This document shows, one piece after another, positions 18,400-53,745 of a stretch of 64,000 nt of DNA (positions within the stretch are counted from its first letter, which is position 1; the number at the start of each line of letters is the position of its first letter). The DNA is taken from contig JAYQQF010000009.1 of NCBI GenBank assembly GCA_038145705.1, positions 68,422 through 132,421 of the forward strand, in the 5' to 3' direction. The notes under the pieces are model-generated. The model was not told where the DNA came from, did no database searches, and worked only from the letters and a program-made list of their open reading frames with translations. The position numbers were made by a program, and so were the translations under genes. Source of the stretch: Alphaproteobacteria bacterium. Its GTDB lineage: Bacteria; Pseudomonadota; Alphaproteobacteria; SMXQ01.

Positions 18400-19020
18400 A
18401 TGACGTTTCCCGACAAGCGCTACGAGGACATCGCCGGATTTGCCGGTGATTATTTCGCGCATTACGGTCAGGCCGCGGCAAGCGTCCCGCGCGAGGCTCT
18501 CGCCCGGGCGGCCGATGTTCTGAAGGCTGCTTACGCCGGCGGCGCCAATGTCTATGCCTGCGGCAACGGCGGCTCGGCGGCGATTTCCAACCACCTGCTG
18601 TGCGATCATGCAAAATGCGTGCGCACCGATACCGGCTTGATGCCGCGCGTGGTCAGCCTGTCCGCCAACCTCGAACTCATTACGGCCATCGCCAACGACA
18701 TCGCCTATGACGATGTGTTCGTCTACCAGCTCCAGAGCCTGGGGCGCAAAGGCGATGTTTTGGTCACCATCAGTTCCTCGGGCGATTCGGAAAATGTCGT
18801 GCGTGCGATCCAGTGGGCGCGTGACAACGGGCTTCATACCATCGCGATGACCGGCTTTTCCGGCGGGCGCACGGCCAAGCTGGCCGACGTCAGCCTGCAC
18901 GTGGATGGAGACAACTACGGCGTGATCGAGGACGTGCACCAGTCGCTCATGCATATCCTTGCCCAGTACGTCCGTCTGTCCCATATGCCCGACGGTCTGA
19001 TCCGCGAGCGCAAATTCTAG
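18400..19020 (+). CDS. gmhA: SIS-domain sedoheptulose-7-phosphate isomerase (phosphoheptose isomerase)
   Basis: SIS fold with GNGGSAAISNH and TISSSGDSENV motifs, about 200 aa. Confidence 0.65.
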   Translation: MTFPDKRYEDIAGFAGDYFAHYGQAAASVPREALARAADVLKAAYAGGANVYACGNGGSAAISNHLLCDHAKCVRTDTGLMPRVVSLSANLELITAIANDIAYDDVFVYQLQSLGRKGDVLVTISSSGDSENVVRAIQWARDNGLHTIAMTGFSGGRTAKLADVSLHVDGDNYGVIEDVHQSLMHILAQYVRLSHMPDGLIRERKF

Positions 19021-23827: not shown

Positions 23828-25300
23828 TCAGGGCCCGCCCACGCCGAGTTGCTGTTCTGCCCTGGCGCGGGCGGCCCGGGTTTTCTTCGGCGCGCCGGCG
23901 CGGCGCCCGTCGGCAGGCACCGCCGGCAGGGCTGCGAAGGTGCTGTCTATTTCCTGGCGCGCCGAGAGGAAGCGGTTGCGCTCGGCGCCGTGCAGGGTGC
24001 GCCCGGTCGGCAGCTTGATCGACAGCGGATTCATGTGCCGGTTGTTGTAGAGCACTTCGTAGTGCAGGTGCGGGCCGGTCGAGCGCCCGGTGGTGCCGAC
24101 ATAGCCGATGATCTGGCCCTGGCTCACGCGTGCGCCGCGGTTGATGCCCTTGGCGAAGCGGCTCATGTGGGCGTAGGCAGTCGAATAGGTCGTGTTGTGA
24201 CGGATGCGGACGTAGCGGCCATAGGCGCCGTTCCAGCGCGCATCGACCACCACGCCGCGGCCTGCCGCCATGATCGGAGTGCCGGTCGGAGCGGCGAAGT
24301 CGATGCCCTTGTGCACCTTGGTATAGCCGAGGATGGGATGGCGCCGCTTGCCGAAGCGAGACGACAGGCGGGCGCCGTCGATGGGCGTGCGCATCAGCGC
24401 CTTGCGGGTGCTTTCGCCCTTGCCGTTGAAGTAGTCCCAGGTACCGTCGTCGCCGCGGAAGCGGTAAATCTCGAGCTTCTTGCCCGAAAGTGTCAGCGCC
24501 GCGTAGATGACGTCGCCGGAACCGACGACGTTTCCTTCGGTATCCTTGATGCGGTCGAACAGCAGGTCGAAACGGTCCTGGGGCTGGATATCGCGCTGGA
24601 AATCGACGTCATAGGAAAAGGCGCGGATCATCTCGACGATTACGGGCGGCGGCACGCCGGCATTCACCGAATCGACGTAAAGGCTGTTTTCGATACTGGC
24701 CGAGGCGCGGGTCTGTTCGTGAGTCAGCTTGGTTTTCGACAGATAGGCCTCGAATGCATTGTCCCAGGTGCGGGCGACGCCGACGGTTTCACGGATGGAC
24801 GGCATGAATTCGAAGCCGCGGAAGGATTCGCCCGCCTTGTTGTCGGGACCAAGGGGCTGGAAGCTCAGTTCCAGCTCGGTCCCGGCCACCAGTTCGCGCG
24901 GGTTGAACACCTTGCGCAGGGCGGAGACGGCCGCATGGGCATCATCGGAACGTACCCGCGCGCGGGCGAGTACCGTCGTCAGGGTGTCGCCGCTGCGCAC
25001 TTTCACGACCCGGGTGACGCTCCTTTGGCGATTTTCAAGAGCGCTATCGGGGGTGGTCAGGGACAGGACCGCCTGCCGGGCGTCGATGCGTGCCTCGTGG
25101 TCGGCGGGCGCCAGCGCGTCCCCGCGCGGCGCCGGCGCGATCCATGGTGCGACCCAGATCGCGACGCCCCAGGTCAGGGCGCCGATGGCGGCGGCGGTGA
25201 CGAGGCCCGGCTTCGGCAGGTACTGCGGCAGGCGCTGCCACCAGCGTCGTTCGACGGGCGGGGGGGAAGTCTGGTCGGATAAGGGGGTCTGGGAAGTCAT
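23828..25300 (-). CDS. M23 family metallopeptidase with an N-terminal membrane anchor
   Basis: C-terminal LytM/M23 domain (HKGIDFAAPTGTPI...GTTGRSTGPHLHYEV) and an N-terminal TM helix. The start MTSQTPL at 25298-25300 is chosen over the 899-aa ORF extension. Confidence 0.8.
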   Translation of the reverse strand: MTSQTPLSDQTSPPPVERRWWQRLPQYLPKPGLVTAAAIGALTWGVAIWVAPWIAPAPRGDALAPADHEARIDARQAVLSLTTPDSALENRQRSVTRVVKVRSGDTLTTVLARARVRSDDAHAAVSALRKVFNPRELVAGTELELSFQPLGPDNKAGESFRGFEFMPSIRETVGVARTWDNAFEAYLSKTKLTHEQTRASASIENSLYVDSVNAGVPPPVIVEMIRAFSYDVDFQRDIQPQDRFDLLFDRIKDTEGNVVGSGDVIYAALTLSGKKLEIYRFRGDDGTWDYFNGKGESTRKALMRTPIDGARLSSRFGKRRHPILGYTKVHKGIDFAAPTGTPIMAAGRGVVVDARWNGAYGRYVRIRHNTTYSTAYAHMSRFAKGINRGARVSQGQIIGYVGTTGRSTGPHLHYEVLYNNRHMNPLSIKLPTGRTLHGAERNRFLSARQEIDSTFAALPAVPADGRRAGAPKKTRAARARAEQQLGVGGP

Positions 25301-25579
25301 CGAATTCCGGTGACGTTGATATGCGCCTCTGTCCGTTTGCGGTCCTTTTCGCCCGGCGACCGCGAACAGGGGTGAAATTCCGGCCTCCCGAGCCGTGCCT
25401 GCCATCGGCAAACCGTTTACCGGTCTTAAGGCTGGCCGCAGCAGAATGGAGTCAAGCCCCCGCGCTGTCAACAAGGGGCCGGAGGATTTCCGGGGTTTTC
25501 GCTCGCATATGAAAATGATATCGCTACCGCGCGAACGTCGGGCCGGCACAGGCAAGCCGGTTTGGGGATACGGGAAAAA

Positions 25580-26560
25580 ATGGGCGAGAACACGGGTTTT
25601 TCGACACGACAACTCGCGATCATCGAGAGGATTTTCGGTGTCGCGGGGCGGCCCGAGGGCGACGCCATCGTCATCGGCGACAGAAAAATCCCGGTTCGCG
25701 ACGGCGTCATTCTGCTGGATGAGGCGGTCGCCGCGGGCGAGGCGCTCAAGAGCGACGTCATTCGCTCCTTCGGCAACGAATGGCAGGCCTTTGCCGACCT
25801 CAAGCCCGAACATCAGCTCGAATTCGATTGCTATTTCGACGTCGTCGAGGTTGCCGGGCTTGCGGGCAAGTCGGTGATCGACCTCGGCTGCGGCATGGGG
25901 CGCTGGTCGCGTATCCTGATGGACCGCACCACGCCGGACTTCCTCGTTTGCGTGGATCTGTCCGATGCCATTTTCGTTGCCCGCGAAAACCTCAAGGGTT
26001 GCGACAACGTCGTGTTCATCAAGGCGGACCTCGAACACCTCGACTTTCCGGGATTCCGGTTCGACTTCGCCTTTTCGCTGGGTGTTCTGCATCATATTCC
26101 CGCCGGTATCGAGACGGCGGTGGGAAATATCCACGGCTATGCTGCCCGCTTTCTTTGCTATCTTTATTACAGCCTTGAAAACCGGGGCCTCGGCTTTCGC
26201 CTGCTGTTCGGCGCGGCGACCTTGGTGCGCAAGGTTCTGTCGTCGATCGGACATGAGGGCACGCGCCGCTTCCTGTCCTGGCTGATCGCGGTCTTCGTCT
26301 ACAAGCCGCTGACGCTGATCGCTGATCTCGCGGGCGCGCTTGGCATGAACAAGGAGCGCGTGCCGCTCAACGCCTATTGCGGGTTTTCGATCGGCCGTAT
26401 CCAGCAGGATGCCTATGATCGCTTCTTCACCAAGGTCGAGCATAGGTTTTCGCGCGCCGACATCCAGCGCATCTTTTCGCCTTACTGGGAGCGGATAACG
26501 ATCTCGGACATTCAGCCGTTCTGGCATTTCTTTTGCGAGGGACGGCGGGAGAGACGATGA
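25580..26560 (+). CDS. class I SAM-dependent methyltransferase
   Basis: SAM-binding motif VIDLGCGMGRWS. ATG at 25580. Confidence 0.7.
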   Translation: MGENTGFSTRQLAIIERIFGVAGRPEGDAIVIGDRKIPVRDGVILLDEAVAAGEALKSDVIRSFGNEWQAFADLKPEHQLEFDCYFDVVEVAGLAGKSVIDLGCGMGRWSRILMDRTTPDFLVCVDLSDAIFVARENLKGCDNVVFIKADLEHLDFPGFRFDFAFSLGVLHHIPAGIETAVGNIHGYAARFLCYLYYSLENRGLGFRLLFGAATLVRKVLSSIGHEGTRRFLSWLIAVFVYKPLTLIADLAGALGMNKERVPLNAYCGFSIGRIQQDAYDRFFTKVEHRFSRADIQRIFSPYWERITISDIQPFWHFFCEGRRERR

Positions 26561-27544: not shown

Positions 27545-27573
27545 TTGACGGGGCGGTCGTTAAGCTTATAAAT
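27545..27573 (+). promoter_or_regulatory. sigma-70-like promoter (TTGACG - 17 nt - ATAAAT) for the regulator / rfaH-like operon
   Basis: A near-consensus -35 and -10 with a 17-nt spacer, 25 bp upstream of the GTG start at 27598. An RBS-like AAGGGGA precedes that start. Confidence 0.45.
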
Positions 27574-27597
27574 TGCGCAGATTCAAGGGGATAATCC

Positions 27598-28239
27598 GTG
27601 TTTTCGACGAAGCCGCGCGCCAAGACCGAACTGGATTTCCTTGCCGCCCTCGAGCGCGGCGAGGTCGTAACCCAGGCAACCCTGTCGCGCCGGATCGGCA
27701 TCGCCATCGGGCTGGTCAACGCGCTTCTCAAGCGCGCGACGCTGAAGGGCTTCGTCAAGGTTCGCACCGCCCCCTACAAGCGTTACGCCTATTACCTCAC
27801 GCCCCGCGGCTTCGCCGAGAAGAGCCGTCTGGTGGCCGAATACCTCGAAGTTTCCCTCGAATTCTTCCGCGAGGCGCGGCGCCAGTACCAGGACCTGCTC
27901 TGGCGTGCCGAACAGTCGGGCCGCAAGCGTCTTGTCTTGGTCGGCGGCGGCGAACTTGCGGAAATCGCGGTCCTTGCGTCGCGCGATCTCGGCGTCGAAC
28001 TGGTCGCCGTCGTCGATGCCGAAACCAACAGGAGCAGCCTGTTCGGCCTTCCCGTCGTGAGGAACATTGATCAGGCCGCAGATTGGGACGCCGTCATCAT
28101 TACCGACAGCAAGCGGCCGCAGGCTGTATATGACGAGATTAAGGGCATTGTGGATCCCGCACGCTTGCTGGCCCCCGAACTGCTCAAGATTACCCTTGCA
28201 CCGTCCGAGGGGCTCGAAGAGGGGGAGAGCGCCGCATGA
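27598..28239 (+). CDS. transcriptional regulator with an N-terminal winged helix-turn-helix and a C-terminal CoA-binding-type Rossmann domain (Rex-like architecture)
   Basis: wHTH (TQATLSRRIGIAIGLVNALLKRATLKGFVKV) followed by a Rossmann-like module (RLVLVGGGELAEIAVLASRDLGVELVAVVD...GLPVV...DAVII). GTG start. Its stop overlaps the next gene's start (ATGA). Confidence 0.55.
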   Translation: MFSTKPRAKTELDFLAALERGEVVTQATLSRRIGIAIGLVNALLKRATLKGFVKVRTAPYKRYAYYLTPRGFAEKSRLVAEYLEVSLEFFREARRQYQDLLWRAEQSGRKRLVLVGGGELAEIAVLASRDLGVELVAVVDAETNRSSLFGLPVVRNIDQAADWDAVIITDSKRPQAVYDEIKGIVDPARLLAPELLKITLAPSEGLEEGESAA

Positions 28240-28733
28240 AGGGCTGGTACGTCGTCTGTACCCATCCGAATCAGGAAAGGCGCGCCGAGGAAAACCTCCG
28301 TCGCCAGGGATTCCGCCCTTGGGTGCCGAGTTTCGCGCGCCTGCGCCGGCATGCGCGTCGCGTCGAGCGGGTGCGCGCGCCGCTTTTCCCGGGCTATCTG
28401 TTCGTCGAACTTGACCCCGTGCGCGAACCCTGGTCTGCGATCAATTCGACCTTTGGCGTGAAGCGGCTGATTTGCCGCAAGGATGTTCCGGCCAGGCTGC
28501 CCGAGGGGTTCGCCGAAGATCTGCGCGCCAGCGTCGAATCGCCCGATTTCATTGCCCCCGAAGACCGGCTCGATGCCGGAGATCGGGTACGCATTACCGA
28601 TGGCCCGTTTGCCGATGCGGTCGGCTTTATCAGCTCGATCGATCCGCAGCAGAGGGTGTCGCTGCTTTTGAGTCTGCTCGGACGCGAAGTATCCGTCGTC
28701 GTGCCGCGCGACTTGGTCGTCCTCGCTTCCTGA
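28236..28733 (+). CDS. rfaH: RfaH-like specialised NusG paralog (operon-specific transcription antiterminator)
   Basis: NGN domain (MKGWYVVCTHPNQERRAEENLRRQG...PLFPGYLFVELDP) is collinear with E. coli RfaH (MQSWYLLYC...PLFPNYLFVEFDP). It has a KOW-like C-terminus and is 165 aa. There is no secE/rplK context. It lies immediately upstream of an exact ops element. Confidence 0.7.
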   Translation: MKGWYVVCTHPNQERRAEENLRRQGFRPWVPSFARLRRHARRVERVRAPLFPGYLFVELDPVREPWSAINSTFGVKRLICRKDVPARLPEGFAEDLRASVESPDFIAPEDRLDAGDRVRITDGPFADAVGFISSIDPQQRVSLLLSLLGREVSVVVPRDLVVLAS

Positions 28734-29786: not shown

Positions 29787-30791
29787 TTGACGCAAGGAGC
29801 GCCGAAGGTTCTGGTTTTGGGCAGCAACTCGTTCTCCGGGGCGAGTTTCGTTGCCCACGCGCTCGCACGCGGCGCGGACGTGATCGGCGTCAGCCGTTCC
29901 CCGGAACCCAACGCTGTCTTCCTGCCTTACCGCTGGGGCGGGGGGCTCGACCGCTTCCGTTTCCGCGCCCTCGACATCAATCGGGACCTTGATGCGATCA
30001 TTTCCCTGACGACCGCGGAAAAGCCCGATTACTTCGTAAATTTTGCCGCCCAGAGCATGGTCGGCGAAAGCTGGGACCGGCCCGAGGACTGGTTTCGTAC
30101 CAATGCGGTTTCCACCGTCATGCTGCACAACAGGCTGCGCAAGGAATGCGGCTTCCTCAGGAAGTTCGTGCATGTGACGACGCCCGAGGTCTATGGCAGT
30201 ACCCAGGGTTTCATCGACGAGACCACGCCCTTCAACCCGAGCACGCCCTACGCAGCGTCGCGCGCGGCGGGCGACATGAGCCTCAAGACTTTCGTCGAGG
30301 CCTACGGGTTCCCGGCCGTTTCCACCCGCGCCGCCAATGTTTACGGGCCGGGCCAGCAGCTTTACCGGATCATTCCGCGCACGATCCTGTTCATCCGCAT
30401 CGGCCGGAAGCTGCAGTTGCAGGGTGGCGGTCTGTCGGAGCGTTCATTCATCCATATAGACGATGTCAGCGACGCGACCTGGCGCGTCATGGAGGATGGC
30501 CCGGCCGGCGAGGTCTATCACATCTCCACCAACGAGATCGTGACCATCCGCGCGCTGGTCGAGCGCATCTGCGCGTTGATGAAGGTTTCCTTCGACGAGG
30601 TGGTCGAGGTCGTCGGCGACCGTCTGGGCAAGGATTCGGCCTACAAGCTCGACAGCACGAAAATCCGCAAATCTCTGGGTTGGACCGACCGCATCGGTCT
30701 GGACGAAGGCCTCGGGCAATGCATCGACTGGGTCGACCGCAACCTCGATGTCCTCAAGACCCAGGAAATGAATTACATCCACAAGCCGTGA
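29787..30791 (+). CDS. NAD-dependent epimerase/dehydratase (sugar-nucleotide 4,6-dehydratase-like) family protein
   Basis: Extended SDR fold (LVLGSNSFSGASF...TPYAASRAAGD). The start is uncertain: TTG at 29787 with a GGTGGAG RBS, or GTG at 29745, which overlaps the upstream gene. Confidence 0.65.
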   Translation: MTQGAPKVLVLGSNSFSGASFVAHALARGADVIGVSRSPEPNAVFLPYRWGGGLDRFRFRALDINRDLDAIISLTTAEKPDYFVNFAAQSMVGESWDRPEDWFRTNAVSTVMLHNRLRKECGFLRKFVHVTTPEVYGSTQGFIDETTPFNPSTPYAASRAAGDMSLKTFVEAYGFPAVSTRAANVYGPGQQLYRIIPRTILFIRIGRKLQLQGGGLSERSFIHIDDVSDATWRVMEDGPAGEVYHISTNEIVTIRALVERICALMKVSFDEVVEVVGDRLGKDSAYKLDSTKIRKSLGWTDRIGLDEGLGQCIDWVDRNLDVLKTQEMNYIHKP

Positions 30792-32385: not shown

Positions 32386-33357
32386 ATGATGGACGCAACC
32401 ACCCGCAAGGCGCTTTACCGTGCCATGAGCCGCATCCGCACCGTCGAGGAACGGATCGCGGACCTGTATCCCGAGCAGGAGATGCGCTGTCCGGTGCATC
32501 TGTGCATCGGGCAGGAGGCGGCGGAGGCCGGAACCGGTCTGGCGCTCGATCGGCGCGACTATGCGCTGTCGGGGCACCGGTCCCATGGCCATTACCTTGC
32601 CAAGGGCGGCGATCTCAAGGGCATGATGGCTGAAATCTACGGCAAGGCCACGGGATGCGCGGGCGGCAAGGGCGGCTCCATGCACCTTGTCGATCTCGAT
32701 GCCGGGTTCCTCGGCGCCGTGCCCATCGTCGGCAGCACCATTCCCATCGCCGTCGGCACCGCCTTCAGTTCGAAAATGAAGGGCGAGGACCGGGTGACCA
32801 TGGTCTTCTTCGGCGACGGCGCGACGGAGGCGGGCGTGTTTCACGAAAGCCTCAACTTCGCCGCCCTGCATGCTCTGCCCATCGTCTTCGTCTGCGAAAA
32901 CAACCTCTATTCCGTGTATTCGCCGATGGGCGTGCGCCAGCCTGACGGGCGTTCCATCGCCGGGATTGCCGCGGCCCATGGTGTCGCGACCCAAACGGGC
33001 GACGGCAATGATGCCGAGGCGGTCTTCACGCTCGCCAGCAAAGCAGTGGATGCTGCCCGGCGCGGACAGGGGCCGGTTTTCATCGAGCTTTCCACCTATC
33101 GCTGGCGCGAGCATTGCGGACCCAATTTCGACAATCACATCGGCTATCGCACCGAGGCCGAGTACGAGGAATGGCGGCAGCGAGATCCGCTGGCGCTCTA
33201 CCGCGCCCGGCTGATTGCCGACGGCGCCGCCACGGGCGCGGAACTCGCCGCCATCGATGCGGAACTCGCCGCCGAAATGGAGGACGCCGTAACGTTCGCG
33301 AAGTCCTCCCCGTTCCCGCCGCGCGAGAGCGCCGGCCAGCACATCTACGCTGAGTGA
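32386..33357 (+). CDS. thiamine-diphosphate-dependent dehydrogenase E1 component, alpha subunit (PDH/acetoin-DH E1-alpha-like)
   Basis: ThDP-binding motif GDGATEAG...NN and E1-alpha-like length and pattern. Confidence 0.8.
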   Translation: MMDATTRKALYRAMSRIRTVEERIADLYPEQEMRCPVHLCIGQEAAEAGTGLALDRRDYALSGHRSHGHYLAKGGDLKGMMAEIYGKATGCAGGKGGSMHLVDLDAGFLGAVPIVGSTIPIAVGTAFSSKMKGEDRVTMVFFGDGATEAGVFHESLNFAALHALPIVFVCENNLYSVYSPMGVRQPDGRSIAGIAAAHGVATQTGDGNDAEAVFTLASKAVDAARRGQGPVFIELSTYRWREHCGPNFDNHIGYRTEAEYEEWRQRDPLALYRARLIADGAATGAELAAIDAELAAEMEDAVTFAKSSPFPPRESAGQHIYAE

Positions 33358-33367
33358 GGGCCGCGCC

Positions 33368-34426
33368 GTGACCAGACAGATCAAGTTTTTCGAAGCGCTG
33401 CGCGAAGGCCTTGACCAGTGCATGGGGGCCGATGCCTCCGTCTACGTGATGGGCCTCGGCGTGCCCGATCCGGGCGGAATCTTCGGTTCGACCAAGGGGC
33501 TTGTGGAAAAATACGGGGCATCCCGGGTGCTCGACATGCCGCTCGCCGAAAACACCATGACAGGCGTTGCCATCGGTTCGGCGCTGACGGGACTGCGGCC
33601 GGTGCTGACCCACCAGCGCGTCGATTTTGCCATCCTGTCGATGGAGCAGCTCGTCAACCAGGCGGCCAAGTGGCACTACATGTTCGACGGGCGCATGCGC
33701 GTGCCGCTGGTCGTGCGCATGATCATCGGGCGCGGCTGGGGGCAGGGCCCGCAGCATTCCCAGAGCCTGCAGGCGATGTTCGCCCAGGTGCCGGGCCTCA
33801 AGGTGGTAATGCCGACCACGGCGTATGACGCCAAGGGTCTGCTGATCGCCGCCATCGAGGACGATAACCCGGTGGTCATGCTCGAGCACCGCTGGCTTTA
33901 CGGCATCGCCGACGATGTCCCCGAAGAGGCCTATCGGGTTCCGCTCGGCAAGGCCAAGATCATGCGCGAGGGCGGCGACGTCACCATCGTCGGGCTGTCC
34001 TACATGAGCCTGGAAAGCCTGCGCGCGGCAGATATTCTGAAGGGCTACGGCATTTCCGCCGAGGTCATCGACCTTCGTTCGCTGCGTCCCCTCGATGAAG
34101 CGACGATCCTGGCGTCGTTGCGCAAGACGGGCCGTCTTGTCGTCACCGATACGGCGCACGGGCCTTTCGGGGCGACGTCGGAGATCATGGCGCTCGCGGC
34201 GGAAAAGGCATTCGGCGCCCTCAAGGCGGCGCCGTCGCGGGTCTGCCTGCCCGATCATCCAGCACCGACCAGTCCGGCGCTTGCCGACGATTTCTATCCG
34301 CGCGCCGGCCACATCGCCGCCGCGGTGCTGCGCCAGTTGGGCCGCGAACCGGATGCCGCGCTGTTTGCGCCGCCCGCGGGCCGCCGCCTCGACCAGCCCG
34401 ATTCATCGTTTCAGGGGCCATTCTGA
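33368..34426 (+). CDS. E1 component beta subunit (transketolase-like pyrimidine-binding domain plus C-terminal domain)
   Basis: E1-beta pattern (MPLAENTMTGVAIG...RVPLVVR...VVMLEH...VTIVGLS). GTG start. Confidence 0.8.
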   Translation: MTRQIKFFEALREGLDQCMGADASVYVMGLGVPDPGGIFGSTKGLVEKYGASRVLDMPLAENTMTGVAIGSALTGLRPVLTHQRVDFAILSMEQLVNQAAKWHYMFDGRMRVPLVVRMIIGRGWGQGPQHSQSLQAMFAQVPGLKVVMPTTAYDAKGLLIAAIEDDNPVVMLEHRWLYGIADDVPEEAYRVPLGKAKIMREGGDVTIVGLSYMSLESLRAADILKGYGISAEVIDLRSLRPLDEATILASLRKTGRLVVTDTAHGPFGATSEIMALAAEKAFGALKAAPSRVCLPDHPAPTSPALADDFYPRAGHIAAAVLRQLGREPDAALFAPPAGRRLDQPDSSFQGPF

Positions 34427-35640: not shown

Positions 35641-36330
35641 ATGTCAGACGGCAAAGCCAGGGAATTCCAGAACCAGAGCCAGATCGACGACTATGGGAGC
35701 CGTGGCGGCGTATCCTTCGGGCCGTGGACGAGCCACATCTGGCGCACCGACCCACGCCACCTCGCCTTTCTGATGTCGCGCTACAAGTTCATTTCGAAGA
35801 TGCTGGCCGGACGCGAAAAGGCCTTCGAGGTCGGCTGCGGCGATGCGGCGGGCACACCGGTCGTGCTGCAAACCGTGAAGCGCGTCTTCGCCATCGATTT
35901 CGAGCCGCTGGTTCTCGAGGATGCGCGCAGGCGCTATGCCGCGGAAGGAGACGACCGGGTGCGTTTCGCCGTTCACGATATCTGCAGCGCGCCGGTGGAT
36001 GAAAAAGGTTTCAACGGCGCCTATTGCCTGGACGTGATCGAGCACGTCCCCGCCGAGCGCGAAGCCCTTTTCATGCGCAACATCGTCGCATCCCTCGATC
36101 GCCACGGCGTGTTCATCATCGGCACGCCCAATGTGACGGCCCAGCAGTATTCCAGCCCGGCGAGCATGGAAGGGCATATCAACCTCAAGAGTGCCAAGAC
36201 GCTGCATGAACTGATGGCCGTTCATTTTCACAATGTTTTCGACTTTTCGATGAATGACGAAGTCGTGCACACGGGGTACTCGCCGATGGCGCATTACCTG
36301 TTCTGCATGGGCGTCGGGGTCAAGTCGTAG
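35641..36330 (+). CDS. class I SAM-dependent methyltransferase
   Basis: Motifs FEVGCGDAAG and CLDVIEHV. Confidence 0.65.
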   Translation: MSDGKAREFQNQSQIDDYGSRGGVSFGPWTSHIWRTDPRHLAFLMSRYKFISKMLAGREKAFEVGCGDAAGTPVVLQTVKRVFAIDFEPLVLEDARRRYAAEGDDRVRFAVHDICSAPVDEKGFNGAYCLDVIEHVPAEREALFMRNIVASLDRHGVFIIGTPNVTAQQYSSPASMEGHINLKSAKTLHELMAVHFHNVFDFSMNDEVVHTGYSPMAHYLFCMGVGVKS

Positions 36331-36353
36331 GAACTGGCGCGGGGTATCGAATC

Positions 36354-37133
36354 ATGGACCTTGGAATCAAAGGCAAGCTGGCGCTGGTGACGGGGGCGGG
36401 TCGCGGCCTTGGCCGCGCGATTGCGAAGTCCCTTGCCGACGAGGGCGCGCGGGTCGTCGCGACGTCGCGGACGGAAGCCGACCTCGATGAATTGATGGCC
36501 GAGATCGGCGGAACTGGCGCCGGGCATCTTTCGGTCCCGATGGACATCGTGCCCGAGGGCGGGCCGGCGGAGCTTTTGCGCAAGTCACGCGAAGGCGGTT
36601 TCGATCATTTCGACATCGCCGTCCATAACGTCGGCGGGACCCTCGACATAAAGGATCCTTTCTGCTCCGTCGAGGACTGGCGGCGCGTCTACCGCTTCAA
36701 CTTCGAGGTCGCGGTCGAGCTGAACGCCTTGATCGTGCCCGCCATGCAGAAGCGCAAATGGGGCCGTGTCGTGCATATTTCCTCGATTTCGGCGATGGAA
36801 AACCATGGTCCCGTCACCTATTGCGCGATGAAGGCGGCATTGACCGCCTATACCCGCAGTTTCGGCGGCGTTGTCGCGCCCGACGGCGTGGTGATCTCGG
36901 CTGTCCTGCCGGGCGCCGTATTCACCGAAGGCGGTTACTGGGATACCACATCGCGGGAAAACCCCGAGCATGTGCGCAAGTATCTGACGGAACGTCAGCG
37001 CATCGGCCGCTTCGGCCGGCCCGAGGAAATCGGTAACTACGTAGCCTACCTCTGTTCCGAACTCGCATCCTTCAGCACGGGCAGCATCGTGCCGGTGGAC
37101 GGCGGGCAGGGCAGGGGCTATTTCGGCCAGTAA
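36354..37133 (+). CDS. SDR family oxidoreductase
   Basis: TGAGRGLG with a YxxxK core (YCAMKAA). Confidence 0.8.
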   Translation: MDLGIKGKLALVTGAGRGLGRAIAKSLADEGARVVATSRTEADLDELMAEIGGTGAGHLSVPMDIVPEGGPAELLRKSREGGFDHFDIAVHNVGGTLDIKDPFCSVEDWRRVYRFNFEVAVELNALIVPAMQKRKWGRVVHISSISAMENHGPVTYCAMKAALTAYTRSFGGVVAPDGVVISAVLPGAVFTEGGYWDTTSRENPEHVRKYLTERQRIGRFGRPEEIGNYVAYLCSELASFSTGSIVPVDGGQGRGYFGQ

Positions 37134-37164: not shown

Positions 37165-37953
37165 ATGACCGCCAACGTGCTCAACAAGGATTTGCGCCGG
37201 CTGATCGTCGACATGACTGTCGCCGGGCGCGACGGGCATATCCCGAGCGCCTTCTCGATCGTGGATATCATCACCTATCTTTACGACCATGTTCTTCGGA
37301 TCGATCCGAAGAAACCGGATGATCCCGCGCGCGATTATTTCGTCCTCAGCAAGGGGCATGGATGCCTGGCGCTTTACGTCAACCTGCGCCGGCATGGGTT
37401 CATTACCGATCACGATATCGACACCTTCTGCAAGAAGGGCGGGATCCTCGGCGAGCATCCCGATCTGTGCAAGGTGCCGGGCGCCGAAGCGTCGTCGGGC
37501 TCCCTCGGCCATGGGCTCAGTTTTGCGGTCGGCATCGCGATGGGGCACAAGATCAAGAAGATGAACAACCGCATGTTCGTCCTGATCGGCGATGGCGAAA
37601 GCCACGAAGGCACCGTCTGGGAAGCAGCCCATGTCGCGGCCAATCACCGGCTGAAGAACCTCTGCGTGATCGTCGACTGGAACCGCTCGGGCATGCAGCT
37701 TCTGCCGATGGACGACCTGCCGGCGAAGTGGCGGGCCTTCGGCTGGCACACCCAGGAAATCGACGGCCACGACGAGGCCCAGATCAAGGCTGCCTGCGAT
37801 GCGGTCGCGGCCAAGACGACGGACCAGCCGAGCGTGATCGTTGCTCATACGGTCAAAGGCAAGGGCGTGCCGATGATCGAAGGACACGGCATGTGGCATC
37901 ACCGCATTCCCAACAAGGACGAATACGCTCACATCATGGAAGTGTTGTCATGA
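37165..37953 (+). CDS. transketolase, N-terminal (ThDP-binding) subunit of a split transketolase
   Basis: HIPSAFSIVDI...LSKGHG...GSLGHGL...GDGESHEG, the transketolase N-section. Confidence 0.8.
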   Translation: MTANVLNKDLRRLIVDMTVAGRDGHIPSAFSIVDIITYLYDHVLRIDPKKPDDPARDYFVLSKGHGCLALYVNLRRHGFITDHDIDTFCKKGGILGEHPDLCKVPGAEASSGSLGHGLSFAVGIAMGHKIKKMNNRMFVLIGDGESHEGTVWEAAHVAANHRLKNLCVIVDWNRSGMQLLPMDDLPAKWRAFGWHTQEIDGHDEAQIKAACDAVAAKTTDQPSVIVAHTVKGKGVPMIEGHGMWHHRIPNKDEYAHIMEVLS

Positions 37954-38882
37954 CCCCGGAAAAAGCCCTGCGTCAGCAGTTCGCCGATACCATGCTGGCG
38001 GTCGGCCAGGAAGACAGAGACCTCGTCGTCATCGTCGGCGACATCAGTCACGGCATCCTCCAGCCCTTCGCCAAGGCCTGCCCGGAGCGTTATTTCAACA
38101 TCGGCATCCTTGAACCGACGACCATGAGCCTGACCGCCGGCATGGCCCGCGTCGGTTTGTATCCGGTGCTGCACACGATCGCCCCGTTCCTGATCGAGCG
38201 CTCGTTCGAGCAGATCAAGCTCGATTTCTGCTATCACAAGCTGCACGGCAACATCATCACCGTGGGCAGCGCCTTCGACTATTCGAACCTCGGCTGTACC
38301 CATCACTGTTACGGCGACTTCGCCTTGCTCAAGACCCTGCCGGGTGTCGAGATCACCTACCCGGGATCGGCCGTCGAGTTCGATGCGCTCTTCCGTCAGG
38401 CCTATCGCAACGACAAGGTGACCTATTACCGCCTGCCCGGTACGCCGCACGGGGTCGTGTTCAAGCCCGAGGACGTCGTGCTAGGCAGGGGCATCAAGGT
38501 GGCAGAGGGGTCCGATATCACCCTGATCGGGACCGGCCCGCACCTGCGCACCGCACTGGATGTGCGTGACCGCCTGGCGGCCGAAGGCAAGAGCGCCGAG
38601 GTGCTCTACATCCATACCATCCGCCCCCTCGATTGCGAGCTGGTGCGCGCGAGCATTGCCAAGACCCGGAGGGCCGTGGTGATCGAGGAACACATGCGAT
38701 CGGGCGGGCTCGGCGACGAGGTGCTGAGAGAAACGCGGGACATTCCCGATGTCAAGTTTGCCTCCGCTTCGATCCCGGACCGCTTTGTCACCGGCTACGG
38801 TACCTACGAGGACCTGCTCGAGAGCATCGGGCTGACGGTTGATGGGGTCCTGTCGCTGATCGCGGAAAAGCGTTTCTTCTGA
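37950..38882 (+). CDS. transketolase, C-terminal (pyrimidine-binding plus C-terminal domain) subunit
   Basis: ATGA overlap with the upstream subunit. Transketolase C-section motifs (YFNIGILEPTTMSLTAG...). Confidence 0.8.
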   Translation: MTPEKALRQQFADTMLAVGQEDRDLVVIVGDISHGILQPFAKACPERYFNIGILEPTTMSLTAGMARVGLYPVLHTIAPFLIERSFEQIKLDFCYHKLHGNIITVGSAFDYSNLGCTHHCYGDFALLKTLPGVEITYPGSAVEFDALFRQAYRNDKVTYYRLPGTPHGVVFKPEDVVLGRGIKVAEGSDITLIGTGPHLRTALDVRDRLAAEGKSAEVLYIHTIRPLDCELVRASIAKTRRAVVIEEHMRSGGLGDEVLRETRDIPDVKFASASIPDRFVTGYGTYEDLLESIGLTVDGVLSLIAEKRFF

Positions 38883-38893
38883 AAGTCAGGGAA

Positions 38894-39892
38894 ATGAGCA
38901 ACGAGCGCACGCGAGCCATTGTTCTGGAACAGGTCGCTGCCCTTTCGGGCAAGGCGGATACGGTGGTTTCCGTCTGGGACACGCAGATTTTCCCGCTGAC
39001 CGTCGGCGGGCTGCTCATCGGGTTGCAGGAAATCCTGATGCTGCGCGCGCTCGTGGGGGCGCGGCGCGGCGTTCTTTGCGTGATTTCCCCGAAGGATGCC
39101 GGAGGCGGCGTGGCATTCAGGGCCGGCGATGCCGTGCCGAACCCGCTCGTGGAATTTGCGATGGCGACGCAAGCCATCGAGGAGTTCCATTACCTGCCCG
39201 ACCACGCTGCGGTTGCCGGCGTTGTCGCCGGGCGCTCCGCCCTGCTCTGGCCGTCCGAAACGGTTGCGCGGGAGCGGGCCCATGTTTATGGCACCACGCT
39301 TTACCTTCAGGCCCTTTACGACAGGCTCGGCAGGTTGCCGATGCTCTCGGTAGCAGGTCCCGCAAAAGAGTGGGCTCGGCGGTTTCTGGCTGAAAAATTC
39401 GGCGCCCGCCCGGTCATCGCCCTGCACCTGAAGAACAAGCCTGGTGCGATCAACGAAAGCAACGCGAATTTCCCCGCCTGGGCGGAATTCCTCGCAGAGG
39501 CGCCGGTGCGCCACGAGTGCGGCTTCGTCCTCGTCGGCAACGAGCCGGTGCCTGATTCGGTTCGGTCCCTGCCGCATGTCGTGCTCGCAGCCGACCATGG
39601 CAGCGCCTTGTGCCGCGATCTCGCCCTGATCGACTGTGCCCAGGCGTTCATGGGCATGGCGAGCGGCCTTTGCCAGATGGCGATGTTCGGTTCGAAGCCC
39701 TACATCGTGTTCAAGAATCCCGGACACCATGCCCCGGAAATGCAGCTTGAGCTTGGCGATGCCGATGGCTTCAACTTTTCGGGCAGGGCGCAGAAACTGC
39801 TGCGCATCCTTGATTCCCAAGATGTCCTTTTCCGCGAGTTCGGCGACGTTCTCGATGCTCTCGAATGCGGGACCGAGGAGGCCAGAACATGA
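38894..39892 (+). CDS. hypothetical protein, glycosyltransferase family 9 (heptosyltransferase)-like
   Basis: A weak GT9-like pattern (RPVIALHLKNKPGA...FVLVGNEP...ALIDCAQAFMGMASGLCQMAMFGSKPYIVF). Confidence 0.4.
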   Translation: MSNERTRAIVLEQVAALSGKADTVVSVWDTQIFPLTVGGLLIGLQEILMLRALVGARRGVLCVISPKDAGGGVAFRAGDAVPNPLVEFAMATQAIEEFHYLPDHAAVAGVVAGRSALLWPSETVARERAHVYGTTLYLQALYDRLGRLPMLSVAGPAKEWARRFLAEKFGARPVIALHLKNKPGAINESNANFPAWAEFLAEAPVRHECGFVLVGNEPVPDSVRSLPHVVLAADHGSALCRDLALIDCAQAFMGMASGLCQMAMFGSKPYIVFKNPGHHAPEMQLELGDADGFNFSGRAQKLLRILDSQDVLFREFGDVLDALECGTEEART

Positions 39893-43522: not shown

Positions 43523-43669
43523 TAGTGTTCGCTCACATCTACGGGGGTCGCTACTCGGTGCTATTCGGCTATTGCCTCGATGTATCCGACCTGTCGCTTG
43601 CCAAGGTGTCGGCGAAATTTCCCATCATGGATTCTCAAGAAAATTATTCCCCAACAAAATAGTTCAGGC

Positions 43670-44863
43670 ATGAAGAAGCGAATCCTTTTCATAACCGTTG
43701 ACTTGGACATCGGCGGAACACAGTGGCACTTGGTGCAGCTCTTGCCGGAACTTGTGAAGCGCGGCATCGAGCCAACGGTTTATACCATCAGACATAAGGG
43801 TAGGCTGGCGGATATCCTCGAAGGTGCCGGAATCGAGGTGATCGCGCCGCCGTTTGCCAAGGGTATGCGATTCATTCCCCAGCCGCTCAGACGCATCGTA
43901 GTCATTGTCGTCAGCGGAATCAGCCTGTATCTGCTGCTTTGGCGGCGGCGGCGGGATTACATACATTTCTTTCTACCGATGGCTTACCTGATGGGTGGCC
44001 TGTTGAGCTTGTTCGTTCCGGTCAAGATTCGAATCATGAGCCGGCGCAGCATGAATCTTTATCAACGTGCGCATCCCGTTCTCGTGCGTATCGAGCGCTG
44101 GCTCCACCAGTTTGTCGATGCCGCACTCGCCAACGCGAAATGCGTCGTTGCCGAGCTTCGGGAAGAAGGCGTAAGCGAGAGCAAGCTGGGATTGATCTAC
44201 AACGGGATCGACCTCAGGCGGTTCGAGGGACTCCCCAGCCGTCGCGAGACACGGGCGGAACTGGGAATCGACGAAAATGCTTACGTGATGACCATGGCGG
44301 CGAATTATCTGGCATCAAAGGGCCACGCCGACCTGTTGACGGCTCTGGCGTTGATCAGGGATGAACTGCCATCAGATTGGCACCTCCTGCTTGCGGGCGA
44401 GGACCACGGGTCCTTGCGCGCCCTCCAGGAGCAGACCGCGCGAAGCGGTCTTGGCCCGCACATCCACTTTCTCGGGGGTAGAAAAGATATTCCCGCGCTT
44501 TTGGGGGCTTCGGATATCGGAATACTCTCCTCTCATCAGGAGGGCTTCTCCAATAGTGTTCTCGAGGGAATGGCGGCGCGCCTGCCGATGATCGTCACGC
44601 GCACGGGCGGTAATCCCGAAGCAATCACGGATCGGCAAAACGGTATCGTGGTGCCGGTCAGTAGCCCGAAGGAACTGGGTGACGCCATACTCGTGCTGGC
44701 CGCAGATCGTGAACTTGGGCGCCGCTATGCGGAAAATGCGCGTGCCCGCGTTGAATCGGAATTCACCATCGACGCCTGTGCTGAACGGTATTGCCGCTTC
44801 TATGCCGGGCTCGGTAAAGGGGAAAAAGTCGACCTAAGGTCGATTCTCCCCAATGACGACTAA
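43670..44863 (+). CDS. glycosyltransferase family 4 (GT-B)
   Basis: C-terminal GT4 motif (SHQEGFSNSVLEGMAARLPMIVT). The start MKKRILFIT at 43670 is chosen over the upstream ORF extension. Confidence 0.8.
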   Translation: MKKRILFITVDLDIGGTQWHLVQLLPELVKRGIEPTVYTIRHKGRLADILEGAGIEVIAPPFAKGMRFIPQPLRRIVVIVVSGISLYLLLWRRRRDYIHFFLPMAYLMGGLLSLFVPVKIRIMSRRSMNLYQRAHPVLVRIERWLHQFVDAALANAKCVVAELREEGVSESKLGLIYNGIDLRRFEGLPSRRETRAELGIDENAYVMTMAANYLASKGHADLLTALALIRDELPSDWHLLLAGEDHGSLRALQEQTARSGLGPHIHFLGGRKDIPALLGASDIGILSSHQEGFSNSVLEGMAARLPMIVTRTGGNPEAITDRQNGIVVPVSSPKELGDAILVLAADRELGRRYAENARARVESEFTIDACAERYCRFYAGLGKGEKVDLRSILPNDD

Positions 44864-45065
44864 ATTGGCGACTTCCTGATATGTCTGGATGCATAAAATG
44901 TTTTGCCGCCCGCAAGGCGCCACTCGATGCAGCCGTTATTCCCGCGCGCTTGAACTTCAGGCAGCGGCAAGCAGGAATTTCCGCTTAGTGAGAACAGCGG
45001 CTTCGGCATTGTCCATTGTGACCGGTCCCGATGTTTCAGAACAGCGAAGTCAGCCGATGGGTGAA

Positions 45066-45668
45066 CTAGTCGCCGTGTCTGCTGGCGTGCTTCAGAATAT
45101 GGGCCGCCGCCGCGCTCAGGTCGGGGAAAATCGCCGTCGCCCGTGGCAGTCCTCGTTCTTTTTCATGTGCCAGCCGATCGATTTCCTTGGCGCCATGGCC
45201 ACTTCGCAGCAGGTAGGTGGTGCCGAGCCCTGCATTGATGCCGGCTTCGATGTCGGTAAGCGTGTCACCGATCATAATGCTGGACGAAAGCTCGATACAG
45301 AAATCGCGGGCGGCCTGCAGAAGGAGACCCGGGCCCGGTTTTCTGCAGTCGCTCGCGCGCCGATAGGCTTCAACAGAAGCTTCAGGATGGTAGGGCGAAA
45401 AATATATTGCGTCGATTTTTGCGCCCTCTATCGCAAGAAGAGTCAGAAGCCGTTCGTGTATTTTTTCGAGCCCCTCCTCACTGAGGTACCCACGGGCAAT
45501 CGCGGATTGATTTGTCACGACGATGACAAGCCATCCCGCAAGATTGAGCGATCGCACGGCTTCCGCCGCGCCAGACAGCAATGCGATCTGATCCGGATCC
45601 GTGATGTAACTTTGCTCACGGTTCAGAACGCCGTCGCGGTCCAGAAAAATTGCACTCCTTTTCCGCAT
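45066..45668 (-). CDS. gmhB: D-glycero-D-manno-heptose 1,7-bisphosphate phosphatase (HAD-IIIA)
   Basis: Motifs FLDRDGVLN, VVTNQS and KP..G. About 200 aa. It is the only minus-strand gene inside the locus. Confidence 0.8.
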   Translation of the reverse strand: MRKRSAIFLDRDGVLNREQSYITDPDQIALLSGAAEAVRSLNLAGWLVIVVTNQSAIARGYLSEEGLEKIHERLLTLLAIEGAKIDAIYFSPYHPEASVEAYRRASDCRKPGPGLLLQAARDFCIELSSSIMIGDTLTDIEAGINAGLGTTYLLRSGHGAKEIDRLAHEKERGLPRATAIFPDLSAAAAHILKHASRHGD

Positions 45669-45865
45669 CGTGTGATGACCTTGGCAAAACTCTCGCGTCT
45701 CAAGTCCGCCCATCCGCAGCGGGTAACGCCCAGAATCTTAGATTGTTTTCAACGAGTCAATTCTTGGTACGCAGGGCACCCATTCTCGGCGCCCCAGGGC
45801 ATGGACATTAAAAATATCCGGCAACAACGGCGATGTATCGAGCCTTATAAGGCGGAGTCAACGAC

Positions 45866-47029
45866 ATGAAAATCTCTCTCTCTCGCATCAAGGGGTTGAT
45901 CAATCACATCCGCAAGGATGGCATCGCCTGGTCGATCCGCAACAGCCTCGTTGTCAGTGGGCTTCGGCGGCATAAACCCAGGAAATCCCCTACGCCGGTG
46001 GGCGGGCAGTTAACAGGTGAGGATACACTATATGCGTTCTATGACATGAGTGTAGACCCCGCCACTTATGACGTCGCCTGGTTCTGCGTCTGCGCTGAAA
46101 TGGCCAGGCGCGAACGCGGTTTGGCGAATCTGGAAATTGTTATCGTTCCCGGGCCGCTCGAGGGATTGCGGGAGGAATCCACCGATTATGATTCATCCGT
46201 GGACCTTCGGGCCCGACATTGGCGGGTGAACAATCTCGTCATTCCGTGCATTTGCCTTTTGCGTCCCCAAGCGGCGCTCCGGATCCTGCGGCGGATTTCG
46301 GATCTCGAGTACGAAGACATCGATCCGAAGAACATATTCCCCCTTGGTTACAACCCGTATTTCTTCCCCGCGCCGATCACGCACGAGGATTTCGCGGCAT
46401 TGAACAAGAAGCTTTGCGAAACCGGGCTGGAGGATTTTTTTTCGGTAGGGCGCATAGGGCGACGCTATGTGGATCAATGGCGTGCATCGGCGCGAGCGGC
46501 GAAAAGGTTGGTTGTCATCACCTTGCGCTACTACAGCTACCATACCGAACGAAACAGTAATCTCGAAGCATGGCTCGAATTCGCAAGGAGTCTCGATAAG
46601 GACTTGTATACGGTTGTTTTCATCCCGGACACGGAGACGGCATTTTCGGAGGCGATGCTCGCAATCGAGAGAGAGTTCATCTTGTTGCGCGAGGCATCGT
46701 TCCTGCTTCACTTGAGGCTCGCGTTTTACGAGGCTGCGTACGTCAACATGGCAGCTCTCACCGGCCCGACGGCGTTATTCACGCTGAATAAGTCATCTCG
46801 TTATATTCTCTTGAAAATGATCGTACCGTCGGCTCCTCTTAATACAGATGCCGCAATGCGAAACCTAGGGTATACGCCCGGTACGGCGCCATCTTATGCA
46901 TCTGAACTACAAAGGTGGGTGTGGGAAACCGACGATGTCGAAGTCATAAAGCGCGAGTTTGTCAAGTTTCAGGCCCTCGCTGAAAAGCAGGGAGTTCCGG
47001 ATGCTCCGCCGGTCGATATCCTCGATTAG
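45866..47029 (+). CDS. hypothetical protein (387 aa, no recognisable family)
   Basis: A long ORF in lower-GC DNA with coding-like periodicity. No motif was recognised. Confidence 0.45.
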   Translation: MKISLSRIKGLINHIRKDGIAWSIRNSLVVSGLRRHKPRKSPTPVGGQLTGEDTLYAFYDMSVDPATYDVAWFCVCAEMARRERGLANLEIVIVPGPLEGLREESTDYDSSVDLRARHWRVNNLVIPCICLLRPQAALRILRRISDLEYEDIDPKNIFPLGYNPYFFPAPITHEDFAALNKKLCETGLEDFFSVGRIGRRYVDQWRASARAAKRLVVITLRYYSYHTERNSNLEAWLEFARSLDKDLYTVVFIPDTETAFSEAMLAIEREFILLREASFLLHLRLAFYEAAYVNMAALTGPTALFTLNKSSRYILLKMIVPSAPLNTDAAMRNLGYTPGTAPSYASELQRWVWETDDVEVIKREFVKFQALAEKQGVPDAPPVDILD

Positions 47030-47082
47030 TCCGGCTACTGCGATGGCTGGTTTGCCGCCTCTGTATGGCGGAATTTTTGCGC

Positions 47083-53744: not shown

Positions 53745-53745
53745 A

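Follow-up and report, generated by a model that had tools for sequence, protein, structure and literature searches.

The window analysed here, a 64-kb stretch of contig JAYQQF010000009.1 of an uncultured alphaproteobacterium, carries within a glycan operon the adjacent genes for the two subunits, E1α and E1β, of an E1-type enzyme dependent on thiamine diphosphate (ThDP). As judged from sequence and gene context, the pair is quite likely to be a sugar-directed carboligase; more specifically, it is likely to be one of the αKADH2 sugar-branching enzymes, ThDP carboligases that stand alone, and not the E1 component of a 2-oxoacid dehydrogenase complex. Enzymes of this class have been established or proposed to use pyruvate for a two-carbon (C2, acetyl) branch on keto sugars (PMC12247030, PMC4802897). 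The original prediction had seen in the pair a candidate for a stand-alone E1 of a glycan locus that transfers a C2 unit from pyruvate onto a keto sugar, and operon context, clade and literature all speak in favour of this idea. The window encodes a lone E1α/β pair in a nucleotide-sugar cluster, beside short-chain dehydrogenases/reductases (SDRs) of the keto-sugar type, and the pair stands apart from E2-linked pairs in a neighbour-joining tree. Since it fits the αKADH2 pattern in this way, we propose the same chemistry.

Both open reading frames (ORFs) are intact and adjacent, with the lengths given before, 323 amino acids (aa) for E1α and 352 aa for E1β. The GC content at third codon positions (GC3) is 0.81 for E1α and 0.82 for E1β, as is usual for real genes in a genome of 65% GC, and Pfam agrees, with E1_dh in E1α (E=5.6e-70, residues 13-312) and Transket_pyr (3e-33) and Transketolase_C (6e-32) in E1β. 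Copies identical to E1α are present in several metagenome assemblies. The stop codon TAG of the HldE-like gene abuts the ATG start of E1α, only 10 nt with a GAGG-like site separate E1α from the GTG start of E1β, and the start of the following C-methyltransferase gene overlaps the E1β stop in the sequence TGATG. Judged from these junctions, the HldE-like gene, E1α, E1β and the C-methyltransferase gene are a translationally coupled chain in the + strand glycan operon. The sugar-modifying neighbours that had been named, including the C-methyltransferase-like gene, were recovered by Pfam as well, which places nucleotide-sugar genes around the pair and a Methyltransf_13/14-type gene directly after it (Table 1).

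Relation to E2-linked E1 enzymes

The absence of a lipoyl-E2 or E3 gene beside the pair, noted before, extends to the whole window. Among 59 Pfam-scanned ORFs none has a Biotin_lipoyl, 2-oxoacid_dh, E3_binding or Pyr_redox domain, and 20 genuine E2/E3 probes from related acetoin operons reached a best E of only 0.14 in a six-frame tblastn search of the window. In the curated NCBIfam models the pair likewise falls short. E1α scores 306.3 bits against a cut-off of 393.85 for TIGR03182 (E1α of pyruvate dehydrogenase, PDH), and E1β scores 303.8 bits against 321 for NF006667 and 298.3 against 454 for NF008854. The latter model is matched at positions 143-458 only, the N-terminal lipoyl domain of alphaproteobacterial PdhB being missing. 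Both subunits align over their full length to solved E1 structures of PDH and branched-chain 2-oxoacid dehydrogenase, and PDH E1s are their nearest counterparts among solved structures (human PDHA1 for E1α, 4.5e-56; Geobacillus stearothermophilus E1β for E1β, 1.4e-67).

In its domain make-up, ThDP motif and catalytic Glu and His the pair resembles the E1 of a complex, while co-encoded E2 and E3 are lacking in the 64-kb window as well as in 28 close loci of the survey described below, and the curated PDH-E1 scores are not reached. The same picture results from the comparison with AcoA/AcoB (Ao:DCPIP OR, the acetoin:dichlorophenolindophenol oxidoreductase) and PdhA/PdhB: fold, domain order, ThDP motif and catalytic Glu/His are as in the window pair, but the latter comes without E2, E3, AcoR and AcoX, is only 41-46% identical and belongs to a separate clade. 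It also differs from these enzymes by its scores below the curated cut-offs, by an extra conserved tail and by substitutions in the active-site loops.

E1α has kept the GDG...NN motif for ThDP and the catalytic α-H243, and in E1β the cofactor-activating Glu β-E61 and the catalytic β-H130 are invariant. Class-specific residues occur in both subunits, R34, C35, Q43, C91, E148, E242 and D249 in E1α and G31, M57, Q83, R84, R122, G127 and R175 in E1β. Several of them lie near catalytic sites in the sequence, α-R34 and α-C35 by H38, α-E242 directly ahead of H243 together with an inserted α-D249, β-M57 near E61, β-Q83 and β-R84, and β-R122 and β-G127 in the loop that precedes H130. Three of the changes introduce new arginines (α-R34, β-R84, β-R122), which would be plausible ligands for a nucleotide diphosphate.

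The C-terminal tail of E1β, about 28 residues long, is found in 21 of 21 E1β of the heptose-class loci and in all 120 of the 120 closest database homologues. It is missing from 12 of 13 E2-linked E1β, which end right after the last core helix, while the window E1β, unlike the canonical protein, runs 28 residues past this helix of the C-terminal domain. The Streptomyces homologues L036 and L039 carry a similar end, GF-x-G-P-Y. After the G. stearothermophilus E1-PSBD structure, we take the canonical E1β C-terminus to be part of the docking surface for E2 (its peripheral subunit-binding domain, PSBD). If so, one would expect the extension either to alter this surface or to extend to another part of the complex. 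In an AlphaFold2 model of the E1β monomer the core is confident and the tail has a pLDDT of 47-60, so that the model is uninformative on the place where the tail docks; the low confidence would be compatible with docking onto a partner or ligand and proves nothing.

Survey of homologous loci

A scan of one genome per species yielded 80 loci with an E1α relative, whose neighbouring ORFs were clustered and annotated through cluster representatives. In some high-GC loci the greedy ORF caller settled on antisense shadow ORFs, so that the neighbour counts derived from its output are minimum values; tblastn-based counts are unaffected. E2 (13 loci) and E3 (7 loci) occurred only beside pairs at most 46% identical to the query, often together with a sigma-54 AcoR-type activator and an AcoX-like kinase, and none of the 28 loci with pairs at least 51% identical had E2 or E3 nearby. 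These 28 loci contained instead the HldE-like fusion (16 loci) and an SIS isomerase (12 loci), as well as the RmlB-like (Dh-type) SDR in 13 and the GalE/HldD-like (Epi-type) SDR in 15 cases, all four counted by tblastn. Each of the four genes was found once among 53 more distant loci.

In a neighbour-joining tree of 75 E1α sequences, which is distance-based and has no bootstrap values, the window E1α falls into the clade that carries this module, apart from the acetoin clade. Its sister is a pair on a metagenome contig (L005) with the same gene order and 71-77% identity. Further members come from Thermodesulfobacteriota, Holosporales, Planctomycetota, Chloroflexota, Verrucomicrobiota, Nitrospirota, Omnitrophota, Elusimicrobia and Pelagibacteraceae. 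This spread over many phyla indicates that the module has moved between them. Database searches returned hundreds of homologues, again across many phyla.

A pair in a cultured organism makes the prediction testable. The alphaproteobacterium Tistlia consotensis (GCA_900188055.1, FZNU01000014.1, 115232-136332; locus L086) has the order SDR-E1α-E1β-SDR together with an SDR/FkbM fusion, two genes for family 2 glycosyltransferases (GT2) and an ABC-2 permease. The full tail is present in its E1β, which shares 67% identity with the query. Within ±10 kb of this pair no HldE-like gene was found.

Comparison with known branching enzymes

The kind of enzyme is already known. αKADH2 pathways have been described for aldgamycin, kosinostatin, kibdelomycin, paulomycin, trioxacarcin, avilamycin and everninomicin (PMC12247030; Plm8/Plm9 in PMC4802897), KbDH-α/β has been characterised in vitro, and ~120 further αKADH2 biosynthetic gene clusters (BGCs) are predicted (PMC12247030). 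With at least eight natural-product families, one enzyme studied in vitro, these ~120 BGCs and hundreds of homologues, the original prediction overstated its case in calling such pathways rare and poorly characterised. The C2 branch is afterwards reduced, methylated, oxidised or transaminated (PMC12247030), and reduction of the acetyl to a hydroxyethyl branch is a known follow-up step (PMC4753412).

Like the window pair, KbDH-α/β, AlmDI/DII, AviB1/B2, Plm8/Plm9 and the kosinostatin and trioxacarcin enzymes are two-subunit E1 proteins without E2/E3 among nucleotide-sugar genes. The setting is nevertheless different. The αKADH2 enzymes of actinomycetes belong to antibiotic BGCs, whereas the window locus looks like one for a surface glycan, with glycosyltransferases of families 4, 2 and 61 (GT4, GT2, GT61), an ATP-binding cassette (ABC) exporter and a NusG paralogue. 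Furthermore, the actinomycete enzymes are partnered with dTDP-deoxyhexose, while the partners in the window point to a heptose nucleotide of the HldE/GmhA type. The Streptomyces homologues of the survey, L036 and L039, are 48-51% identical to the window pair and fall into a wider sugar-context clade of the tree; the neighbours of L039, a carbamoyltransferase, an LCM methyltransferase and a DegT protein, look like secondary metabolism.

The task of a ThDP-dependent acyl branching of a nucleotide keto sugar for a surface glycan is shared with YerE, ErwE and MyGE (PMC9306805). However, YerE-like enzymes belong to an unrelated ThDP superfamily and are single chains of ~600 aa of the acetohydroxyacid synthase (AHAS)/decarboxylase type, while the window enzyme is an E1α/β pair. 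Branched sugars of lipopolysaccharides have so far been assigned to the YerE type and αKADH2 to secondary metabolites (PMC12247030). A link of the window pair to caryophyllose or caryose was considered and dropped, as enzymes of the YerE type are responsible for caryophyllose, erwiniose and gastriose (PMC9306805).

Partner genes of a putative heptose type

The putative heptose-type partners share with the ADP-heptose pathway (GmhA, HldE, GmhB, HldD) and with 6-deoxyheptose formation by a DmhA-type 4,6-dehydratase the SIS, PfkB and cytidylyltransferase-like domains and extended SDRs, but several features set them apart: the domain order of the fusion is swapped, scores stay below the equivalog level, the RmlB-like SDR has TPE for TDE and often YxxxR, and the window contains no GmhB gene. 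The HldE-like fusion has its nucleotidyltransferase at the N-terminus and its PfkB kinase at the C-terminus, and its best NCBIfam matches, rfaE domains I and II, are below the cut-offs (105.5 vs 345 and 110.1 vs 181.5). Such fusions adjoin E1 pairs in 16 genomes of several phyla.

The motifs GSNSFSG, [ST][ST]PEVYG and PYAxS[RK] of the RmlB-like SDR are kept in 15 related loci. In the window protein the catalytic TDE is replaced by TPE, an exchange of Asp for Pro with Thr and Glu retained, and YxxxK by YAASR; across the subfamily the Lys is often replaced by Arg. Orthologues of the GalE/HldD-like SDR occur in 15 heptose-class loci, often directly upstream of E1α, and 12 related loci have the SIS gene inside the module. 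Two of the related loci (L007, L024) also encode a GmhB-like HAD phosphatase and a transaldolase, and genes of the GT9 heptosyltransferase family are present in six survey loci, three of them heptose-class. By their family assignment, these phosphatase, transaldolase and GT9 genes would fit a heptose route.

Proposed function and alternatives

We propose that an α2β2 enzyme decarboxylates a donor, presumably pyruvate, to hydroxyethylidene-ThDP, and that the resulting acetyl-anion equivalent would be added to the carbonyl of a nucleotide keto sugar instead of being passed to a lipoyl-E2. The product would be a C-acetyl branch, a tertiary α-hydroxy ketone. The acceptor would most likely originate from the same operon. 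The GmhA-like enzyme would isomerise sedoheptulose-7-phosphate, the HldE-like fusion with its swapped domains would phosphorylate and nucleotidylate the heptose, and the heptose nucleotide would then be oxidised or dehydrated by one conserved SDR or the other, either that of the RmlB-like TPE type or that of the GalE/HldD-like type. Subsequently, the branch would probably be reduced by the zinc-dependent alcohol dehydrogenase (Zn-ADH) or an SDR and the sugar methylated by the 222-aa methyltransferase and others, before a glycosyltransferase finally adds the branched sugar to a surface glycan. Of the enzymes that travel with the E1 pair, the Zn-ADH is a candidate for reducing the branch and the 222-aa methyltransferase one for O-methylation. 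That the acceptor is derived from a heptose appears to us an even chance, on the basis of the partner genes; the original prediction had not considered a heptose origin of the likely acceptor in place of a hexose one.

Several points weigh against this scheme. The clade is known from sequences alone, from which we infer donor, acceptor, branch position and later steps, and the likeness to KbDH, AlmDI/II, AviB1/2 and Plm8/9 is drawn from published descriptions. The heptose assignment is built on distant similarity and co-occurrence, because the HldE-, GmhA- and RmlB-like proteins score below curated cut-offs; the co-occurrence reaches p = 1e-6 to 1e-8 with related loci counted as independent, so that independence is overstated. 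The GmhA-like gene of the window is no part of the operon, which starts 9 kb further downstream, and a gene for the GmhB phosphatase was not found in the 64-kb window. The locus also encodes RmlA and RmlB (51425-53295), a source of dTDP-4-keto-6-deoxyhexose, the classical type of acceptor. Finally, the host is alphaproteobacterial, and paralogy with PDH E1 is set aside by clade and score alone.

The presence of RmlB, RmlA, FdtA and DegT in the locus raises the question whether the same carboligase acts on dTDP-4-keto-6-deoxyhexose, or on its 3,4-isomer, from RmlA/RmlB/FdtA. A branched 6-deoxyhexose similar to yersiniose or paulomycose would then result, while the heptose genes would be needed for a different residue of the glycan. 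All characterised αKADH2 systems use nucleotide sugars of the deoxyhexose or pentose type (PMC12247030, PMC4802897), and DegT aminotransferases adjoin several E1 pairs of the survey. However, a distance of 17 kb separates the pair from the Rml genes, which are downstream in a segment of lower GC, translation of the pair is coupled to that of the HldE-like gene, and across genomes the pair travels together with the HldE-like fusion, SIS and the special SDRs and not with genes of the RmlA/RmlB type (an RmlB-like SDR of this type in 4 loci only). We therefore consider a hexose acceptor, although a real alternative, unlikely.

It is highly unlikely that the pair is a sugar-directed ThDP enzyme of another chemistry, for instance a DXS-like acyloin chain extension at an aldehyde, the use of a donor other than pyruvate, or ketol cleavage. 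The class-specific changes of the active site, which are unexplained, would leave room for such a reaction, as would Ao:DCPIP OR, also an αKADH2 enzyme, which cleaves acetoin and accepts aldehydes (PMC12247030). The related loci are moreover rich in YerE/AHAS-like, HMGL-like, transaldolase and B12- or SPASM-type radical S-adenosylmethionine (SAM) enzymes, which suggests elaborate higher-carbon sugars. On the other hand, αKADH2 enzymes appear to be specialists that place C2 branches, taken from pyruvate, on ketone acceptors (PMC12247030), and the flanking SDRs of the window are of the type that generates keto sugars.

The housekeeping PDH of Alphaproteobacteria uses an α/β-type E1, and the host should accordingly have its own α/β PDH E1 elsewhere in the genome. 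That the window pair itself is a conventional pyruvate, acetoin or branched-chain E1, with E2/E3 encoded elsewhere and an incidental position in the glycan operon, is the least probable of the readings: PDH E1s are its closest solved structures, both catalytic His for reductive acetylation are kept and the host group uses this type of E1, but the scores stay below the cut-offs, none of the 28 close loci has E2/E3, true acetoin operons form a separate clade, and E1β lacks the N-terminal lipoyl domain, has the 28-residue tail and is coupled to sugar genes.

Relative to the known αKADH2 enzymes, the proposed C2 branching of a sugar by the pair appears to be new in its link to an HldE-type heptose module, in its spread beyond actinomycetes in surface-glycan loci, in the invariant E1β tail, and in the occurrence of the E1 pair alongside a non-canonical split transketolase and a C-methyltransferase. 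None of these, that is the heptose-module link, the surface-glycan spread, the tail and the co-occurrence with the split transketolase, was found described in the literature searched, although the ~120 predicted αKADH2 BGCs may already cover part of it. We tentatively suggest, as a possibility short of probable, that the clade with the tail D-x-P-x3-F-x-G-P-F branches an HldE-activated heptose nucleotide and in this way gives rise to undescribed C-branched sugars of C9 or larger in the surface glycans of many phyla. Because the pair would act alongside the split transketolase and the C-methyltransferase, one operon could introduce up to three different carbon branches.

If this is true, E1-type sugar branching would not be confined to actinomycete antibiotics but would be widespread in environmental cell envelopes, in Alphaproteobacteria, Verrucomicrobiota, Planctomycetota, Chloroflexota, Nitrospirota and Thermodesulfobacteriota. 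Hundreds of proteins labelled as pyruvate/acetoin dehydrogenase E1 would be re-annotated with the E1β C-terminal tail as marker. Unknown monosaccharides are predicted, for which cultured T. consotensis could be searched, and the enzymes would represent new ThDP biocatalysts that form tertiary alcohols.

Split transketolase

A second ThDP enzyme, absent from the account of the original prediction, is encoded 2.7 kb downstream of the E1 pair. This split transketolase has kept the catalytic His. When it is aligned with the genuine split enzyme 6YAJ, Gly, Gly and Leu stand in place of the His and Arg that bind phosphate and of the Asp for the C2-OH of the acceptor. The same replacements are present in its orthologue in the Chloroflexota metagenome-assembled genome (MAG) L009. 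We take the residues concerned to correspond to H469, R528 and D477 of the yeast enzyme. A role as supplier of sedoheptulose-7-phosphate, an idea that came from the transaldolase in L007 and L024, was judged less likely because these phosphate-binding and C2-OH residues are replaced in the window and in L009. By analogy, the split transketolase may be a hydroxyacetyl-branching enzyme. For miharamycin and amipurimycin, split-gene transketolases have been proposed as the source of the hydroxyacetyl branch, with 13 candidates that are all from Streptomyces and of which none is characterised (PMC12247030). They likewise consist of two genes in a sugar cluster; the window enzyme differs in being alphaproteobacterial, with an orthologue in a Chloroflexota MAG, and in lacking the canonical phosphate-binding residues.

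Organisation of the operon and the window

The glycan operon begins at ~27.6 kb and is long, tightly packed and on the + strand. From its 5' end it encodes the MarR-like protein, the NusG paralogue, the GalE/HldD-like SDR, the RmlB-like SDR, the HldE-like fusion, E1α and E1β. After E1β follow the C-methyltransferase, a methyltransferase, an SDR, the split transketolase, a protein of unknown type, an SDR and a methyltransferase, and then a membrane protein similar to lysylphosphatidylglycerol (LPG) synthase, the Zn-ADH and a GT4. Orthologues of the C-methyltransferase-like protein are present in L009 and L014.

Table 1 Coordinates of the E1 pair, its partners and other features of the window
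Feature	Position	Strand	Remarks
GmhA-like SIS isomerase	18400-19020	+	TIGR00441 gmhA, 126 bits vs 209 cut-off
MarR-like helix-turn-helix (HTH) protein and NusG paralogue	27598-28733	+	NusG 1e-19 and KOW; MarR_2 and HTH_24 weak, below cut-off
GalE/HldD-like SDR (epimerase or oxidoreductase), 312 aa	28834-29772	+	Pfam Epimerase 9e-32
RmlB-like extended SDR, special subfamily, probable keto-sugar generator	29787-30791	+	dTDP-glucose 4,6-dehydratase model, 204.8 vs 365 cut-off
HldE-like fusion, 523 aa	30814-32385	+	Pfam CTP_transf_like 43-134, PfkB 208-510
E1α-type ThDP subunit, 323 aa	32386-33357	+	ATG start; Pfam E1_dh
E1β-type subunit, 352 aa	33368-34426	+	GTG start; Transket_pyr and Transketolase_C
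E1β C-terminal extension, residues ~325-352	34340-34423	+	ends D342-x-P344-x3-F348-x-G350-P351-F352
Sugar C-methyltransferase-like protein, 397 aa	34426-35619	+	Methyltransf_13 zinc domain, Methyltransf_23, Methyltransf_14
Methyltransferase (229 aa) and SDR (259 aa)	35641-37133	+	Pfam; syntenic with E1 pairs in L009, L011, L014
Split transketolase, non-canonical, N half	37165-37953	+	ATGA overlap with C half; best PDB matches split transketolase 6YAK/6YAJ
Split transketolase, non-canonical, C half	37950-38882	+	
Co-travelling methyltransferase, 222 aa	40785-41453	+	Pfam; orthologues with 45-74% identity in 9-10 heptose-class loci
Zn-dependent alcohol dehydrogenase, 351 aa	42467-43522	+	Pfam ADH_N, ADH_zinc_N; orthologues in 6 heptose-class loci
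GT4 glycosyltransferase	43580-44863	+	Pfam Glycos_transf_1 4.1e-33
RmlB	51425-52435	+	
RmlA	52432-53295	+	
FdtA 3,4-ketoisomerase	53295-53744	+	
DegT aminotransferase	53650-54846	+	

The MarR-like gene and that of the NusG paralogue overlap by 4 nt at the head of the operon and recall operon-specific antitermination of the RfaH or UpxY type. The sole sigma-70-like site between 26.4 and 45 kb, at 27545-27574, is located just upstream of the MarR-like gene. In this region promoter and terminator sites were no more numerous than in shuffled sequence, and the scan is therefore no guide to the limits of the operon. The window gave no match in Rfam and tRNA scans. Four + strand ORFs of 326-478 aa (38894-39892, 44889-45869, 45866-47029, 47065-48501) had no Pfam match even at E = 0.01.

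Upstream of the operon lie ordinary chromosomal genes, cysHDN, lysC, ptsP, ispG, hisS, hemA, prfA, prmC, the GmhA-like SIS gene and clpB. Alphaproteobacterial MAGs provide the closest named relatives of HisS, and a beta- or gammaproteobacterial host, considered at first, was therefore rejected. An M23 peptidase ORF on the - strand (23828-26527) has 899 aa when called mechanically and 490 aa in a metagenome annotation, which places a methyltransferase on the opposite strand at 25562-26560; the 899-aa ORF is probably an over-extension in high-GC DNA. From ~40000 to 64000 the GC content drops from ~0.65 to 0.53-0.59 and GC3 from ~0.80 to ~0.65, and by this composition a separate acquisition of the glycan locus's distal half is possible. 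Encoded there are a GT4, the ABC exporter, a GT2, RmlB/RmlA/FdtA/DegT, a GT61, an ATP-grasp enzyme and proteins of unknown type, together with a glucose-fructose oxidoreductase (GFO) family protein, an iron-dependent alcohol dehydrogenase (Fe-ADH), two radical-SAM-like proteins and an FkbM methyltransferase. RmlB, RmlA, FdtA and DegT form a complete-looking pathway to a dTDP-3-amino-3,6-dideoxyhexose and are followed by the GT61 and the ATP-grasp enzyme, which, going by its family and position, might N-acylate the amino sugar.

Further observations in the related loci

Some E1 loci encode additional enzymes for C-C bonds. L010, L014, L015 and L016 combine the E1 pair with a second, YerE/AHAS-like ThDP enzyme of ~600 aa, L006 and L014 have an HMGL-like aldolase, and B12- and SPASM-type radical SAM enzymes are present in some related loci. 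Their gene content suggests sugars that carry several C-C modifications. Two further clades of E1 pairs (L028-L031; L032, L033, L037, L043 and L045) have no E2/E3 nearby and no E1β tail. One of the two is associated with B12-/SPASM-type radical SAM and GT9 genes, the other with DegT aminotransferases, and one locus belongs to a Nitrososphaerales archaeon. As far as their gene neighbourhoods indicate, these tail-less clades may be additional, distinct classes of sugar-directed E1. In the sister locus L005, a 366-aa ORF with no Pfam match directly follows E1β.

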